From assembly GCA_964016885.1 (NCBI GenBank), contig OZ024749.1, positions 41,292,001 through 41,356,000 of the forward strand: a stretch of 64,000 nt of DNA. Reading direction: 5' to 3'. Positions 22,801-41,751 of this stretch are shown here, piece after piece (positions within the stretch are counted from its first letter, which is position 1; every line of letters begins with the position of its first letter). Below the pieces are notes generated by a model. The model saw only the letters and a program-made list of their open reading frames with translations. It did no database searches and was not told the origin of the DNA. This DNA is from Eledone cirrhosa. Taxonomy: Eukaryota. The position numbers and the translations under genes are program-made.

Positions 22801-24014
22801 TACGTCCGCTTTTCCCTGCTTGCAAGGGTGGGACGGGAACTGATTCTGGCTTGATTTCTACAGCTGGATGCCCTTCCTAACACCAACCTCATTTACAGTG
22901 AGTGCTGGGTACTTTTTTGCTGTGGCACCTCCACGACCACCTTGCAGTGGAATGATAGGGACCCCAGTCCCTATCATCTCATTTCTACAGCTGAGTAAAC
23001 TGGAGCAATGTGAAATAAAGTGTCTTGCTCAAGGAAACAACACATCACCCGGTCTGAGAATTGAACTCACAATCTTTCGATTGCAAGCCCAATGCTCTAA
23101 CCACTAAGCCATGTGCCTCCATCTATATATATATCATCAATATTATATATAAGTATATATCCTCAACTACTTGCCCCAAACAGTATATAAATGCTCTCTT
23201 TTAGACCACCAAGGGAAGCCAAGTACCACCATAACACCTCTCTAGCAACAAAATACCAGTATCCTAGCCTCAACTCCTATAACAATCTCTGTTATGATTA
23301 TGTGAATGTTTGAGTATGTGTATATGTGTTTGTGTGTGTTTATTTAGAAAGATACATAAACAATAGAATTACAAACACACATGTATCCACATATATATAA
23401 ACAGACACACTTGGAAAAAATAATTATTACATACACACACATCTATGTGATGACTGAGGAAGGAGGGAGGTGAGAAGCTATAGAAGTCCAGCGTTCTAAG
23501 ATTTGTCACACTTGTATGTGTATATGTGTAGCGAATTGGCTATGCACATTGGAGTGACTTTGTATCACTTGTGTGAGTGAGGATAAAGGAACCAACAAAC
23601 ATCTCTTTTTTATATTATGTATAGATATTACTATTAGCTCTCATTTTTTACGTCATGGGGCCAGCTAGTAGTTATATAATCAGTGATCAGAAATTATACA
23701 CACCACACCATCCTGCTCTTCCATCCTCTATAACTAACTGTTCTTCTACTTAGTTTAAAACACATGAATATTTCCAATTTCAGGTATTACTTCAGAATCT
23801 CTCCCCAGCATTTCCAAGAACACAAGAAGGTTTAACGCCATTAGATCTAGCCATTGAAAACAAACACAGTAAAGCTATCAAACTCTTTGGTAACTACAGT
23901 TATATTATCTACTCTTTGTCTTATTGGTCTTATGACACTTTTGTTATATATGTGTTTATTTCTGTTCATGTAGCTAAATATTTCTTTTACATCTACAACA
24001 AACACACACACATG

Positions 24015-24051
<37 letters not shown>

Positions 24052-25560
24052 ATATGGGTAAAAGGTAAACAGAAATAATAAAAAATAACAATCTATCAAG
24101 TAGAAAAGATACTACAAACATTTGGATTAACAAACCTGTTTTTAGATATTTTCTGTTAAATCATTACAGGATATTAAAAATGAATGAATAACCTTGCTTA
24201 TGTAACATTTATCTAAAATGACTACACTGCATAAAAAATTAAGGTATTTACTCAAATACTGCAAATGTGTACAATAATCTATCTAGTAGTAAAGATACTA
24301 CAAACATTTGCATTAACAAACCTGTTTTTAGATATTTTCTGAGGACAATTTATTTCACATGTTTCCTAAGAAAAAAAAATTTTGAAAATAAGTCACCAAC
24401 ACCCAAATTGTATTCAATTTCACCTCTCAATACAAACACTGTCTATTATATATGATAAATGTTGTTTATTTTCACAGAGAAATATGTTCCACCACCAGTA
24501 CTTACAAAACCTGAACATTGGCTACATCCAGAACTTGAAAGACAAGTAAGCAGGACATGTTCTTTTATGTTGGTAGTTTTTTTTTACGGTTGTTGTTTGT
24601 GTGGTTTGTTTTTGATGTTCCTATTGAAAATAGATTTTGTTTATGGCTTTTTTTGGTGGGAGGGGGGGGGGATGTTTTAAAGGTTTGTTTTTCTTTTCTA
24701 AATCCTTTATTATATACATTACTCTCACATACCTTCACCACCTTCAAAATACATGTTTCAACTCCCTTCCCTCCCCCTCTCTCTCACCTCTCTCTCTCTC
24801 TCCCTCTCCCTTCTCTGCCACACTCTTTATACTTCTCTCTCTCCTTTCTCCTCTCTCTCTCACTCTCTTTCTCCTTCTCTCTCACCCGTCACTTCTCTTT
24901 CTCTCTCTCTCTGTTCTTTTATCCTCTTCCCTCCCCTTTCTCTCATTGTTCCCATCTTCTGTTTCTTTCTGTCAGTTTCAACCTATCATATCAACCTCAA
25001 TATATTATTCAATATGTTAGCTAGGGGTCATAATGGGTCACATTACAAACAATTAAGAAAAGAGAAGCGAGACAGTTTTACATATTCAACTTCAGTTTAT
25101 TGTTATTACATCACACCTATTATGTACATTTCAAAAGCATTAAAATGTCCTTATTTAATACATTGTCATCAGAGAGGTGCTGAAAAAATATATATAGGCA
25201 TAAATTGGTTGGTGATAGGAAGGGCATCCAGCCATAGAAACATGCAAAATAAAAAAGGGTCAGGATTACACTTCCATAAAGTAGTTTGTGATAGGAAGCA
25301 TATCCAGCCATAGAAAATCTGCCAAACAAAGTTAGAAAGGACTCTTCAGCTATGCCAAGGACATGACAACTCCCTAGTGTTGGTATCATGATAAAATACA
25401 CACAGTAGAGCGCAGAATCGCATGTCAGGGCCCCAACATAGCTAAAAAGTCCTCCTTGAAGGATAGGGGCTCTGCTTGACTACTGACCATTCTTGATGAC
25501 ATGTCCAACATTTGCTGGCAGGGAAAACAAATATTAAACAATGATGGTTATATTTGTGTG

Positions 25561-25622
<62 letters not shown>

Positions 25623-26209
25623 AAGAATTCGAAGTTGGAAAGCCAGCATGGTATAGCAAGCAATATTGGACACTGGAATAGTTCCTTTATTTTCCTCTTC
25701 CTCGGAAGAAGAGATATTAATCTCGAAATATCAGGATATATGAATAAATTAAGGTAAAAAAACAAACCCGGTTTCTTACGTTTTAATTTTTCTCCGTCCA
25801 AACCTGCATTGTCGTGGCTTTCCAACTTCAAATTTTTTGTACCATACCATATATATATATACACATATAATTATGATGGCGATGGTGCTTCTAATTATAG
25901 TCATTTAAAATAATTACTTTTATTATCAAATAATTATTGTTGATTATCTTTGCTTAACAGAATGGTCTTATTTTGTGTTTATTACTGTTCAGGGTGCTGC
26001 AATTTTATTAAAACGTGGTGCTGCTACTCCAGGGTTGTTCCTCATTAGAAGAAGTAAATGGCGTGAAGGTTGGTACGTGATGAGTATCTACTCTGGACAT
26101 GTCTTCCACTTTGAGATTCAGAACTGTGTAAGTGAAGCATCTCATCTTCATTCTCTTGTAGTTATATCTACTCATTGATTGTATAATATATGTATGTGTA
26201 TGTGTGTGT

Positions 26210-26241
<32 letters not shown>

Positions 26242-26565
26242 TTTACGTCCGCTTTTTCCCTGCTTGCAAGGGTGGGGTGGGAACTGATGCTGGCTTGATT
26301 TCTACAGCTTGGATGCCCTTCCTAACACCAACCTCATTTACAGCGAGTGCTGGGTGCTTTTTTTGCCGTGGCACCTCCACGACCACTTTGCAGTGGAATG
26401 ATAGGGACATTTCTACAGCTGAGTAAACCGGAGCAATGTGAAATAAAGTGCCTTGCTCAAGGAAACAACACATCACCCGGTCTGAAAATTGAACTCACAA
26501 CCTTTCGATTGCAAGGCCAATGCTCTAACCACTAAGCCATGTGCCTCCATGTATATATATATATC

Positions 26566-26607
<42 letters not shown>

Positions 26608-29600
26608 ATATATTCATATATATATACACAATGTGGTTGGCATTAGGAAGGGCATCCAGCCGTAGAAAACCAGCCAGAAACAACCCTATATGAGCGAGAC
26701 ACAGTCCCTTGACCCAACTTGCCTCTAAATGGGACCTGTCTAACCCATGCTAGTGTAGAAGATGGATGTTAATCGATGATGATGATACAGAGAGTGAGAG
26801 AAAGAGATATGTAAACTTTTAATCTGAAAATGTGTGATGAAACAGATATTGTTATACTTTGGGAGGGTCATGCTGCCAATAAAAAACACATGACCCTCCC
26901 AAAATATAACAATAAACATATATATATATATATATATATATATAGTAATAAGAATATTTATATTTATATATGTTTAATACAAGTAAAAATATGTAGGGTA
27001 GTACTGAGTACTAGCCAGTTACCGGTATGACAAAAGGCTCAATGCAAAGTGTTTTACAGAGCCGAGATAGAAAGTGTTAAAACGATCAACAAATACCTCA
27101 CATAACAAATACCAACATTATCACCACATGCCTCTCTAACAAATTGCACGCTACCTTAAACATTTCTAACAATTATAACATGCTTTAATACCCCACCCAA
27201 AATATGTTTATTTCAACTGCATTATAACTCTTTCCTCATACATGGCTTATTGACTGCATTGTACACCTCTTTTCCTTGCTTATAACTTTTTTGCCTGTAC
27301 TTTTTGCTTATACTGTAATTGTGTTCTCTCAAGCATAACATCTTTTTAACTCTTGACTCTCCATATGATGCCTTTGACACTAACAACAACTATGTACCCT
27401 AAATGTTCTGAATGACTAGGATTTTAGTTACATGTTTCGACATCCCCTATGCTCCGATGATTCCAGACCTCCCTCTGGAAGAAACAATTGTCAGCAAATA
27501 AATGTTCTAAACTAAAATTTGATCGTTTTAACACTTTGTATATATATATATATACAAATATATACAAATATATTACACAAAGAGAAGTGTGTTACACAGT
27601 GAGATGTGTGTAATGAATTATTACAAGTGAGTTTTACCGTTACTGTATAGAGAACAATATCTACAGGTTAGCAATTAAATAGAAAAAAACTAAGTCAGAA
27701 TCAAATCTCTGAATTAGAGTTTTAAAACTCACTTGTAATAATTCTTTACACACATCTCACTGTGTAACACACTTCTCTTTGTGTAATATATTTATAATAA
27801 TAATAATAATGAAATTATTGTGTACAGTGCTCAGGTGCACTACAACTCATCAAAGGTGCATGTATAGTACATAGAATAATGTACAAATGTCAGGAAAATA
27901 AACAGTGTATGAGTCATGATATAATAACAATAACAATAATGAAATATTGTGCACAGTGCCCAGGTGCACCACAACCCATCAAAAAAGTGCATGTACAGTA
28001 CATAGGGCAATGCACAAACATCAGTAAATGCATTTGAGCTCAGAAGAAAATTCTCTATTCTTCTTTGAGCTAATATTATTATTATTATTACTGTGAACTG
28101 CGGAATACTCTTAATTCCGATCTTTGTATATATATATATATTTCAGGATAGAACCAGTTTAAAACTAATTAGATCATTACTTAATAGAGTACTTAATACT
28201 GGGGGTAGTAGAGTATGGCTGTATTATAAAGAGTTGGGACCCAATGGCTGAGCTCTTGCTGTTTCAACAGTTAGTTACAGGCTGTCTGGAACTAGCTGTT
28301 GAAATCGTAAGAGCACAGCCGTCAGGTCCTAACTCTTTATAATATATATACATATATACATGTATTGTGTGAGAGTTGTTGGAATAGAGGTGTGCTTCTA
28401 ACAGGCTAACATCTTTGTCAAGTCAAATAAGCACAGTATGATGTGAGATATCTATTATGTACCTATTGTTATATTTCACAGGTAACCAGCAATCAACAGA
28501 GGACATATTCTACCTGATTATCATGTCATTCTGACATACTTTAAATTTTTTTTAAACCTAAGGAAATATGTAAATGGAATAATAAACTTATGCAAGTTTA
28601 GCTGTCCTCCTACGAGGTTGTCTTTTTTCATATGAGGTTTCTCAGGTGTTTTTAAGACAATGTGGCCCACACCTATCACATGTAAACTAAGTCACATGCC
28701 TTTGTCATAATGAAAATATGTATATTTATTGTAAATTAATACAATTAAATTAAAAACAGGAAGACATAACACTCCATATATTTGCGTTATATGTCTACAT
28801 GTATTAAATTCTAGTTCGTTTCTCAATTGATATACATCAATATATCATTTTAAAATATATTATATTATTGATGCTCTGAATGGAAGTTTATTGAGCTTTT
28901 TACTGAAAAACATTATCTATATATATTCTACATGAACTGATTAAACCTAAAAATAAGTTATATATATCTATCATCCTCATCAGCATCAAATAACGTCTAT
29001 CTTCCACACTAGCATGGGTTAGACGGGTTGTCCCATTTGAGGCTAGTTGGGTTAGGTGACCATGTTTTACTTGTATAGAACTGTTTCTGGCTGGTCTTCT
29101 ATGGCTGGATGCTCTTCCTAATGCCAACCACATTTACAGTGTCGGCTGGGTGCTTTTTGTCATGTCTCCTACACTACCACTTTACAGTTTGGTCTGGATA
29201 TGTTTTATTCACAGTGTGAGGGTGATGTGGACAGGAGTGGGTTGGACTGGGTATATATATATATATTTATATATATATATAAGATCAAAAGATGGTTAAA
29301 TGAGTTCCATGTATTTTATTATGCGCATTTCAAAAACAAATATCATCATGCAATAACATTTGTGTTTTCATCAGATAAAATAGGAGGACATGATATGAAG
29401 GTTAAAAAACACTTGTGGACATGATATGAAGGTTAAAAAACACTTGTGGATAGTGCAGTTTTAAATCAACACTATCCACAAGTGTTTTTTAACCTTCATA
29501 TCATATCCACAAGTGTTTTTTAACCTTCATATCATGTCCTCCTATTTTATCTGATGAAAACACAAATGTTATTGCATGATGATATTTGTTTTTGAAATGC

Positions 29601-29739
29601 GCATAATAAAATACATGGAACTCATTTAACCATCTTTTGATCTTATATATTATGTATACTCCAGTCCTACAAACTGTAGAGTGCTTCTTATCCGATATCT
29701 GCATTGCTTTATTGTACTACAATAAAACTCACCTCCTAC

Positions 29740-29800
<61 letters not shown>

Positions 29801-32355
29801 CATATGTATGTTATATATATATATATATATTATATATACATATGTATGTTATATATATATATATTATATATTATGTATATATATTATATATTATGTATAT
29901 ATATTATATATTATGTATATATATTATATATTATGTATATATATTATATATTATGTATATATATTGTATATTATGTATATATATTATATATACATATGTA
30001 TGTTATATATATATATATATATATATATATCATCATCATTATCATCATCATCGTTTAACGTCCATATTCCACGCTCGCATGGGTTTGTACAGGAGTTTTC
30101 ACACTTGAGGCAAGAGTGGTTGTCTTGCTCGCATAGGACTGTCTGGCGGGTTTTCTACGGCTGGATACCCTTCCTAACACCAACCACATTTACAGTGTGG
30201 AACTGGGAGGTTTTTACCGTGTTACCTACACGGCCACATTACAGCGTGGACTGTGTGTTTTTTTTTGTCGTGACACCTACACGACCTCATTTGTTTCGGG
30301 CTGGATGTTGTGGTACCAACATAACTTTACATTGAAAGGGGTGGTGTGGATGGGGAGGGGGGGGGGGGGGGGGGTATTTTGTTAGAGGTGCCTACTGACT
30401 GTAGTAGGTTTCACTTTCTTTGCACTTAGGTAAGGCGGGTCTTCTCTATTACTGTGTAGGGCCAAAGATCTCGGTCCAGTGACATTGTCTTGGAGAGGTG
30501 TAAGTGTGTGAGGTCGGAATTTATCAAGTTGTCACTTCCTGTCCCCCAACTTGAGGGACAGCCCTCGCATGAACTTGTTAACACAATAAATTTGGTGACC
30601 TAGAATTTGATCTTTAGGTATCACCCAAAGTTCAAGGCGCCGACAGATTTCGCTACATATATATATATATATTGTTATTTGCAGGAATACAATGGTAATG
30701 TGATGTACTACATAGACAATGGTCCATTCATGGGTTCATTACAATTAGTGGTCCACCATTACAGCATGCGGTCTGATGGACTTCCCTGTCTACTTAAGTA
30801 TGGTTTATCAATAGGTAAGTATTAGACACTTCATTTGGTATAGTGTACCCTCCACACTACTGTACTCTACATAGTGTACTTTCCATCATTAAATATCATT
30901 ACCATTATTATTATTGGTGGTATGATAGCCAATGAGGGTTATCCGAGGCGTGGTTATTGCTAGTTGAAAACTATTGTTATTAATATAATGGTTTGGCAGT
31001 ATTGGTAGAGCGTCAGACACCATGCTTTGCAGCATAGAGTTATGACCCTTTACATTCTGATTTCAAATACCGCCAAGGTTAGCTTTGCCTTTCATTCTGG
31101 CCTTGTGCCTATAGTAAAAATAATTGTCTCTACTTTAGGCACAAGGCCAGCAATTACCCAGTGCATTACTGGTACTTTATTTTATCGACCCCGTAAGGAT
31201 GAAAGGCAAAGTCAACCTCGGCGGGATTTGAACTCAGATCGTAAAGGGACGTAACTATGCTGGAAAGCATGGCATCCGACCCTCTACTGATACTGCCAAT
31301 CCACCGCCCTTTAGTAAAAATAATTATTGTTATTATTCATTACAGAAGGAAATATGTATGAAATACCAAAGTTACACAAAAACTTAATGAAGATAAAAAC
31401 AGAAGAACTTGGTAAATAATTTTGAGAATTTTTTGGCCCCTGGAGTATCATCCCCACCCCCACCCACCATTCACACACACACACACACACATACAACATT
31501 GTTTGAAAGCCACATATTGACAAACTGGCTTATGGTTAATGTTTCAGGTGACTAATATATATATATATCGGAGGAACCTTCAGCCGCGTCAAGGATATGA
31601 GAACCTCTAAAGTATTGGTGATTTACACAATAAATGCACTCAGTACATGCTGTCAAATGGTTAGTGATAGGAAGGGCATCCAGCTGTAGAAATCTTGCCA
31701 GACAAAGGGTGGGGAGAACTCTCCAGTTGCGTCAAGGGCATGACAACTCTCCTGAGCACTCGATGTAACGCAAGACCGTAACATGAGCGCACATGTTCCT
31801 GACCTGCCTGGGAGATCAGTGACTCCACTTCAGTTACTAACTTGGTCTATATGGACCCATCCAACCCTTGCAAGCAGAGAAAGCAGATGTTTAAACGACG
31901 ATGATGAGGAGGAGGATGGCCGATGATTGAACAGGGATTTCGAGACTAGAAATAGGTAGTAACTTAACTACCTCCATATTAGTCGATACATCGATTTCTA
32001 TCATTCAATTGACCTTCTGAAATGATCGTAAAACAATGAACTAACTCTCTGCCTACACCTAACTTCTGTTTTATTGTTCTATGCACAAACACATATACAT
32101 ATGTATATATATAATAGGTTTCACCGCATTTTTGACTAAAGAAATTTTAGCCTGATAATGGGGTTTAGAACCCTCAGATAAATGGAAAAAGATGAGTATT
32201 GACGTACATGTACATCAATACTCATCTTTTTCCATTTATCTGAGGGTTCTAAACCCCATTATCAGGCTAAAATTTCTTTAGTCAAAAATACGGTGAAAGC
32301 TATTCTATTTTCTAATTTCAAACCTGCTCACTGTTTCAAAACATACTTACTTGTC

Positions 32356-41644: not shown

Positions 41645-41661
41645 GTACTTGCTTCGGCAGT

Positions 41662-41701
<40 letters not shown>

Positions 41702-41751
41702 GGCCCCTGCGCAAGGATGACACGCAAATTCGTGAAGCGTTCCATATTTTT
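41645..41751 (+). ncRNA. U6: U6 spliceosomal snRNA
   Basis: Full-length canonical sequence: 5' stem-loop GTACTTGCTTCGGCAGTAC, ACAGAGA box, AGC triad, ISL, and a 3' oligo-T run (T10) Pol III terminator. Confidence 0.98.

Follow-up and report, generated by a model that had tools for sequence, protein, structure and literature searches.

Head-to-head hammerhead-bearing pseudo-long terminal repeats in an intron of Eledone cirrhosa: a young insertion of a Penelope-like element, probably formed by twin priming

Here, we describe an insertion in the genome of Eledone cirrhosa, found in a stretch of 64,000 nucleotides (GenBank assembly GCA_964016885.1, contig OZ024749.1, positions 41,292,001 to 41,356,000 of the forward strand; hereafter "the window", in which all coordinates without a locus name are counted). 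The insertion lies in an intron of a tyrosine kinase gene and contains a near-perfect palindrome with a hammerhead ribozyme motif on each strand. It is almost certainly an insertion product of a Penelope-like retroelement (PLE). We read it as two pseudo-long terminal repeats (pLTRs) placed head to head in a (TA)n tract, with both arms likely reverse-transcribed from one capped, uncleaved RNA, and we put the probability of this reading at about 0.65. The locus itself is unremarkable, one young transposon insertion out of hundreds; its value lies in the family-wide pattern to which it belongs.

The arms of the inverted repeat (29275-29462 and 29463-29650) are 188 nt long each and 98% complementary, and their gapped alignment contains 1 mismatch, a substitution, in 179 columns. 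The palindrome has a folding energy of -302.8 kcal/mol and none of 100 shuffles was as stable, which bears out the near-perfect inverted repeat of ~375 bp described in a sequence-only reading of the window. The extent given there, 29274..29650, is that of the palindrome itself but not of the insertion, which spans 29274-29739, its plus-strand arm running ~90 nt beyond 29650. The short-ended (S) pLTR arm (29274..29471, minus strand) has the 3' end ...GATCTTATA, and its 5' end falls 2 nt short of the family 5' hot spot. The long-ended (L) pLTR arm (29470..29739, plus strand) is identical to a natural copy, L031, over 29504-29731; with 228/228 positions identical to another copy, the insertion is very young. 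Comparison with intact copies places the head-to-head junction at 29470..29471, in a 2-nt microhomology, CA. The tail of ~90 nt (29651..29739, plus strand) continues, in the full-length copies L066 and L069, into the 5' untranslated region (UTR) and the open reading frame (ORF). In addition, a repeat search found a 31-bp tandem duplication in the S arm (29386..29447, minus strand), which recurs in the L arm (29473..29534, plus strand) with the sole arm-to-arm mismatch at its junction. This junction occurs once per arm and, searched as an exact 30-mer, is absent elsewhere in the genome assembly.

A genome search with a single arm returned 1,127 first-look candidates, and the 40 that were scored gave 57 matches, most of them 99-100% identical. 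A 23-mer from the hammerhead core had 2,578 exact genome matches and its control had 0. When the flanks of 30 loci were inspected, many copies were seen to continue upstream into a common body that encodes a reverse transcriptase (RT; motif YRDD) and a C-terminal region of GIY-YIG type (LIY..YF(G)); L060 holds an open frame of 797 aa. Copies L066 and L069 have the order pLTR, tail, 5' UTR, ORF, 3' UTR, pLTR, a partial tandem with a unit of 3,580 bp. The Penelope-like origin proposed earlier is thereby supported, the arms being pLTRs of an element with an RT plus GIY-YIG ORF. This ORF had no match in Pfam and none in PDB, and the domain call rests on motifs; a protein search with it found 8 relatives at 31-43% identity, 6 of which carry a precomputed PF26215 assignment. 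As a side observation, a frame of 781 aa at L052:2655-4997 (plus strand) starts within an inverted stub of pLTR and reads on, in frame, into the ORF of the element.

The part of Craig et al. (2021, PMC8557442) cited here gives DKT, CxCX5C, the absence of CCHH, CxxC, CxH and RWK as diagnostics of the Hydra clade. In our main family the DKG motif has become DKT (SDKTNNLY), the linker reads CNCPAKNKC, CCHH is absent, the interval from the LIY to the YFG motif holding a single C, and CxxC and CxH occur around the conserved E and N (CNLC; CLH). The RWK position reads RWI in the main family and RWK or RWR in 5 of 6 aligned relatives. A (TA)n target follows both end types, S and L, in almost every sampled arm, and the order of RT and endonuclease (EN) motifs agrees, by eye, with the published Hydra alignment. 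Judged by these motifs, the family adds a new member to the Hydra clade of EN-bearing (EN+) PLEs. With that clade, as far as the cited part of PMC8557442 describes it, the family has in common a single ORF joining RT to a C-terminal GIY-YIG region, with DKT and CxCX5C, without CCHH, and with CxxC and CxH near the C-terminus. Also in common are the pLTR hammerhead, the (TA)n target, inverted 5'-truncated copies and the one-end tail. The family departs from the same description in its unit (3.58 kb, versus generally <3 kb in Hydra), in RWI instead of RWK, and in a tail of ~90 nt versus 30-40. Hydra-1_Obim, an Octopus Hydra family in File S1 of that paper, has the motif string in common with ours and is, by eye, a different family. 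Other elements noted in the flanks, all named by eye, are a second Hydra-like element and another Penelope-type element (L036:6247-8273 and L038:5241-7054, both minus strand), and a LINE-like frame of 1,025 aa (L059:2-3076, plus strand).

The family-wide pattern was read from a positional sample, the first 100 of the 2,578 core matches, which amount to 73 insertions on contig C1, plus L032; the pair census covers the first 153 Mb of one contig. Within 5 kb of one another, these first 100 matches form 25 head-to-head pairs, 17 of them spaced <250 bp, and 0 tail-to-tail pairs. The sequence-only reading had suggested that similar palindromes be counted genome-wide; extrapolation from 100/2,578 matches puts them at ~440 short palindromes, and pairs in total at ~640. 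An inverted arm is present in 60 of the 73 sampled insertions, in keeping with the earlier statement that such elements often leave inverted end duplications.

Two sites account for the arm ends, S (...GATCTTATA) and L (...CACCTCCTAC), each followed by (TA)n. The sample holds 55 insertions with one arm of each kind (S+L), 1 with L+L, 4 whose inverted arm is unclassifiable and 13 in which no inverted arm was found. Thus one arm is short and the other tailed in 55 of 56 classifiable pairs (P=3e-15, calculated for 53/54, before two stubs were added), and we refer to this as the one-tail rule. Inverted tail stubs can be as short as 8-23 nt (L175, L191). Among the 13 insertions in which none was found (e.g., L177, L179, and L194), 10 are short-ended, as is expected if the rear (tailed) arm is usually the one lost. 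Among 15 loci retrieved with a diverged arm as query, 6 of 7 pairs were S+L and the other was L+L (by eye). Similarly, S+L holds in 17 of 17 pairs of family B (L147:215-462; 29 loci, 1 duplicate locus dropped) and in 18 of 19 classifiable pairs of family C (L011:1050-1325; 25 loci, 5 duplicate loci dropped, 5 unclassified), where the query favoured palindromes.

Family C, with 1,733 first-look candidates, has a near-fixed palindrome centre. At least 4 other hammerhead families (B, C, L019:2048, and L011:670) have the same scaffold with an unrelated stem II, and other hammerhead families often share (TA)n tracts with the main family. Loci L128, L193, L231, and L236 contain internal extra pieces or partial tandems, yet their outer ends are one S and one L, which suggests template jumps after priming. 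A miniature inverted-repeat transposable element (MITE) or other non-autonomous palindromic unit was rejected for the main family; junctions vary, arms range in length from a few dozen bp up to 4.3 kb, and they continue into the ORF. Please note that a target-site duplication is not definable inside (TA)n.

The 5' ends of the arms bear on the state of the template. Of the arm starts in the sample, 41 fall in the bin -70..-61 and 0 in +50..+79, where the cut (+60) lies; a cleaved RNA was rejected as template, since no sampled arm begins near the cut. An extra G before such a 5' hot spot is, as a general principle, a mark of a reverse-transcribed cap. A G immediately precedes the hot spot in 21/42 non-overlap junctions versus a background of 10% (8/21 in the sample alone), a count that omits 21 junctions whose preceding letters are the partner arm's overlap. 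We read this G, on indirect grounds, as a putative reverse-transcribed cap.

The two arms of an insertion agree at sites where the family is polymorphic. Discordance between arms was seen in 0 of 29 pairs at site -7 (13.7 expected), in 2 of 36 at +78 (18.8 expected) and in 2 of 26 at -39 (9.2 expected), and the long ORF-bearing arms of 3 insertions gave 42 concordant and 2 discordant sites (18.3 discordant expected). The density of shared rare variants is 2.2/kb in tight pairs, 0.7/kb in spaced pairs and 0.04/kb between loci, and in some pairs both arms break off at a common, arbitrary point (L098 at -887/-873, L113 at -680/-681). Twin priming on a single RNA is the account of these data that we consider probable. 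Another account would have two RNAs of the same source locus handled by an RT-endonuclease dimer, with one protomer always at S and the other at L. This would explain the one-tail rule, and concordance too if one source dominates per germ cell; moreover, a dimer is predicted for PAc in the cited part of PMC11167929. Shared rare variants, a genome-unique duplication in both arms and equal truncation points are nevertheless simpler with one RNA, as is the finding that L is more often the shorter arm (30 vs 9), and several subfamilies coexist, yet arms hardly ever mix. We consider two RNAs unlikely, with a chance that is far from negligible.

The upstream reach of the arms speaks to a different possibility. 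The arm extending further 5' is S in 30 pairs and L in 9, with 15 equal, and 7/43 L arms end at or past the S region, which we take as a sign that both arms were primed on RNA. The cDNA might snap back and copy itself, with the endonuclease trimming the product at the TA-rich S site, and/or the arms might be homogenised later. Pairs with equal end points (15) would fit such a fold-back or conversion, as would the greater density of shared rare variants in tight palindromes; S contains TATATA, as does the target, and the tail is ascribed to EN-mediated resolution in the part of PMC8557442 cited here. What makes this improbable is that the tail is on L only while S is often longer upstream (the 30 pairs above), so that neither arm can be explained simply as a copy of its partner. 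In addition, arm-specific rare changes, at 12-13/kb, approach the between-locus rate of 16.8/kb, which indicates that the arms mutate mostly independently after insertion, and a tail-to-tail neighbour pair, L065, is not homogenised (5 concordant and 7 discordant sites; a single case).

Near-perfect palindromes can also raise the suspicion of a fold-back artefact of sequencing or assembly, all the more where a locus-unique duplication is mirrored in both arms and the locus is known from an assembly alone. We give this next to no chance. A biologically defined tail and one substitution set the arms apart, their 5' ends differ and their flanks are distinct; dozens of sampled loci share the design with varied junctions and independently mutated arms. 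A sequencing-run look-up found three runs containing 0.64-0.73 of the words, from one sample that may be the source of the assembly rather than independent of it, and among the runs listed, none is RNA.

Under twin priming on a single RNA, the element endonuclease would cut both (TA)n strands. Both cut target strands would then prime at two fixed sites ~90 nt apart on the element RNA, one 3'-OH at the S site (UUAUAUAU) and the other at the L site (CCUACAU), each through a short TA microhomology. Both RTs would head for the RNA 5' end. Should the rear RT stall near S, the arms would not overlap; should it displace the front cDNA, overlapping arms and a palindrome would result. The two cDNA 3' ends would be joined by microhomology and then filled in, at CA (29470-29471) in the present insertion; at many loci the microhomology is the self-complementary ATAT of the RNA 5' end. 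The hammerheads would ride along as pLTR passengers. For the clade as a whole, we lean slightly toward integration by near-obligate twin priming, in which two RT protomers would use two fixed sites on one capped, uncleaved RNA and the front cDNA would be displaced. If this is true, near-obligate twin priming alone would explain the one-end tail, inverted pLTRs and solo palindromes of PLEs, and each genome would yield hundreds of perfect intronic double-stranded RNA (dsRNA) hairpins with self-silenced ribozymes.

Twin priming was reportedly described for L1 by Ostertag and Kazazian in 2001, with both target ends priming one RNA to give a 5' inversion and a join by microhomology. In L1 it is said to account for a minority of insertions, with an internal site that varies and arms that do not overlap. 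Set against that description, inverted arms are here the majority outcome (60/73), the second site is constant, and overlap of the arms, giving palindromes, is the usual case.

A second comparison is with the PAc Poseidon element (Frangieh et al. 2024, PMC11167929), which, in the part of that paper cited here, nicks and extends both DNA strands with an uncleaved RNA template, has two internal RT start sites that define the tail, and is predicted to dimerise. Our family resembles it, on the reading proposed, in two RT starts bounding the tail, in the nicking and extension of both strands, in an AT-rich target and in an uncleaved RNA. It belongs to a different clade, its tail lies in the 5' UTR and not in the ORF as in PAc, and whereas the PAc starts described there are non-homologous to the target, TA microhomology is found here at both sites.

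Several points weigh against the single-RNA reading. Concordance does not distinguish a single RNA molecule from a pair of RNAs that come from one source locus. Exceptions to the one-tail rule exist: L178 and L164 are L+L, L260 was scored S+S, and two complex loci are SS and LL. The PAc starts, in the cited part of PMC11167929, are without a strand difference, whereas here we find almost strictly one S and one L. Many of the 21 hot-spot Gs are also templated by the partner arm, which is what makes the cap reading indirect. Shared rare variants number 13 in 5,964 bp of tight palindromes versus 2 in 2,983 bp of spaced pairs, a ~3-fold difference that leaves room for gene conversion after insertion. 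We cannot fully explain the sole mismatch between the arms of the present insertion, for which one may consider either a pair of slips at one 5-nt microhomology or a duplication carried by the template and followed by a later change; because it sits exactly at the duplication junction, a single template-borne duplication is insufficient without a second event. Finally, it is important to remember that the copy estimates are an extrapolation from the first 153 Mb of one contig, and that the locus is read from one assembly and its transcription is presumed.

Some of this is already known: inverted pLTR pairs and one-ended tails are in the cited part of PMC8557442, and opposite-strand hammerhead pairs in that of PMC4209133. 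Our literature search did not find a strict one-tail, same-template rule, which older papers on PLEs may state. The origin of tandem and inverted PLE structures is named an open mechanistic question in the part of PMC8557442 cited here, and the steps after priming are left unvalidated in that of PMC11167929. A near-strict rule of one short and one tailed arm in three families, one template lineage, and a start upstream of an uncut ribozyme would constrain those post-priming steps.

We now turn to the hammerheads themselves. A minimal type I hammerhead lies in the L arm at 29543..29613 (plus strand; predicted cut 29605/29606) and another in the S arm at 29312..29382 (minus strand; descriptor match). 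Each consists of an 8-bp stem I, CUGAUGA, a long stem II, GAAA, AU-GCGC-AU and A17. The core CUGANGA/GAAA/NUH is present with helices I and II, and is kept in related families with unrelated stem II. Our own hammerhead descriptor gave 3 matches in the window (both arms and one near 25180) and 0 in 30 window shuffles, confirming the earlier claim of one complete type I hammerhead per strand. The Rfam check suggested at the time turned out otherwise: no hammerhead family was found at gathering score, nor among the 33 matches with E<=10, which lowers the claim to Rfam family membership and not the motif call. Rfam matches of miRNA-like type, below gathering score, reflect the long hairpin. The third descriptor match, a hammerhead-like motif of another family in the preceding intron (25113-25180, minus strand), has CUGAUGA, a 33-nt stem II region, GAA, AUGUACAU and A17.

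The helix III octamer is self-complementary in 219/231 matches of the main family and 25/25 of others, with differing sequences (ATGCGCAT, ATATATAT, ATATGTAT); loci that overlap enter these counts repeatedly, and the first and last base were preset by the descriptor. In folding calculations the isolated monomer has a stem III probability of 0.001, whereas the homodimer forms an intermolecular AUGCGCAU helix (-33.3 versus -21.2 kcal/mol for 2x monomer). A supply of stem III by the dimer fits both the self-complementarity kept across families and the inactive monomer of PMC4209133, so the predicted folds support the earlier description of a minimal, dimer-type ribozyme. The PLE minimal hammerheads (min-HHRs) of Cervera and de la Pena (2014, PMC4209133) are, in the part of that paper cited here, likewise of type I, with a long helix II and a palindromic helix III needing a dimer. 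According to the same part, they occur in thousands per genome, as here, one monomer assayed in vitro did not cleave, and in Schistosoma they form dual motifs on opposite strands 100-700 bp apart; no insertion mechanism for such opposite-strand pairs was found in it. They differ from ours in stem I (4-5 bp in Schistosoma, 8 bp here) and in the base of stem II, which here is all A-U/G-U, without the G10.1-C11.1 pair. Animal non-LTR retrozymes (bioRxiv 10.64898/2026.07.22.740005), as described in the cited part, are also short PLE-related repeats with type I hammerheads. They are head-to-tail monomers or multimers, whereas ours is a truncated, head-to-head product of a family that has an ORF and whose junctions vary.

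Could the arrangement serve the host? The sequence-only reading had proposed a conditional ribozyme switch or a small-RNA source, freed by ADAR or a helicase. In folding calculations the lock does hold. A transcript from either strand makes the antisense arm first, and in the whole insertion the hammerhead stem probability is ~0, so this part of the proposal is matched by the model; the hammerheads in host pre-mRNA are predicted to be inactive, buried in a hairpin of ~180 bp. Two further points favour a switch, each from the cited part of its source: in cephalopods, repeats within introns and 3' UTRs are targets of editing (PMC9068888), and the PAc hammerhead cleaves once protein is added (PMC11167929). 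Even so, we rate a host function as very improbable. The insertion is very young (228/228, above) and one of an estimated ~440. The monomer is predicted to lack stem III even when unlocked, and a dimer would require a second free sense copy, of which our descriptor finds none in intron 26128-30684. Nor is the lock supported as the reason why the ribozyme persists; unlocked copies are common in the sample: 12/43 pairs have a whole hammerhead in only one arm, and 13/73 insertions have no inverted arm found (any orientation).

When A-to-G editing was simulated at 10-80% of adenosines outside the core, the hairpin kept an energy of -229 to -302 kcal/mol and the probability of stem II stayed at <=5e-11 (25 replicates at each of 4 levels). 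Editing therefore never freed stem II in simulation, contrary to the unlocking that had been proposed, and the self-cleavage switch is unsupported, its alternative fold not being reached in this RNA-only model; actual A-to-I editing would hit the five core adenosines too. No host selection is needed, because the arrangement is the default insertion product of the main family and two others. An ADAR-gated intronic hammerhead was not found in our literature search. The effect on the host is likely that of neutral intronic dsRNA. By analogy, the hairpin is plausible as an editing substrate or a source of small interfering RNA, and, from the family-wide pattern, the Eledone cirrhosa genome is predicted to hold several hundred perfect hairpins that are candidates for editing or small-RNA production.

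The host intron (26128..30684, plus strand; GT..AG, phase 0) splits an SH2 domain of an ankyrin-SH2-tyrosine kinase gene, whose exons match ankyrin, SH2, and tyrosine kinase in Pfam. The exon on one side has a Pfam SH2 match, while the exon on the other side is, by eye, the remainder of the same SH2 and has no Pfam match when searched alone. The earlier reading called this a shark intron; the intron and the exon architecture stand, and on the basis of this ankyrin/SH2/tyrosine-kinase architecture we presume the gene to be "shark". The left (TA)n target tract occupies 29252..29281, with an ambiguous border with the short arm over 29274-29281, and the right tract, read from the sequence, starts at 29740 (29740..29790). 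The same or the next intron contains more inverted repeats, at 27563-27796 (97% complementary), 28222-28344 (83%) and 31038-31256 (84%), and 26630-26728 pairs with 29036-29134 (82% complementary). Because of these, long dsRNA is not unique to the insertion. Inside the host gene, Rfam also matches a U6 small nuclear RNA (41645-41751, plus strand, 118 bits), a degenerate U4 copy (30901-31044, plus strand, 53 bits) and a tRNA-like piece (23054-23111, minus strand, 31 bits).

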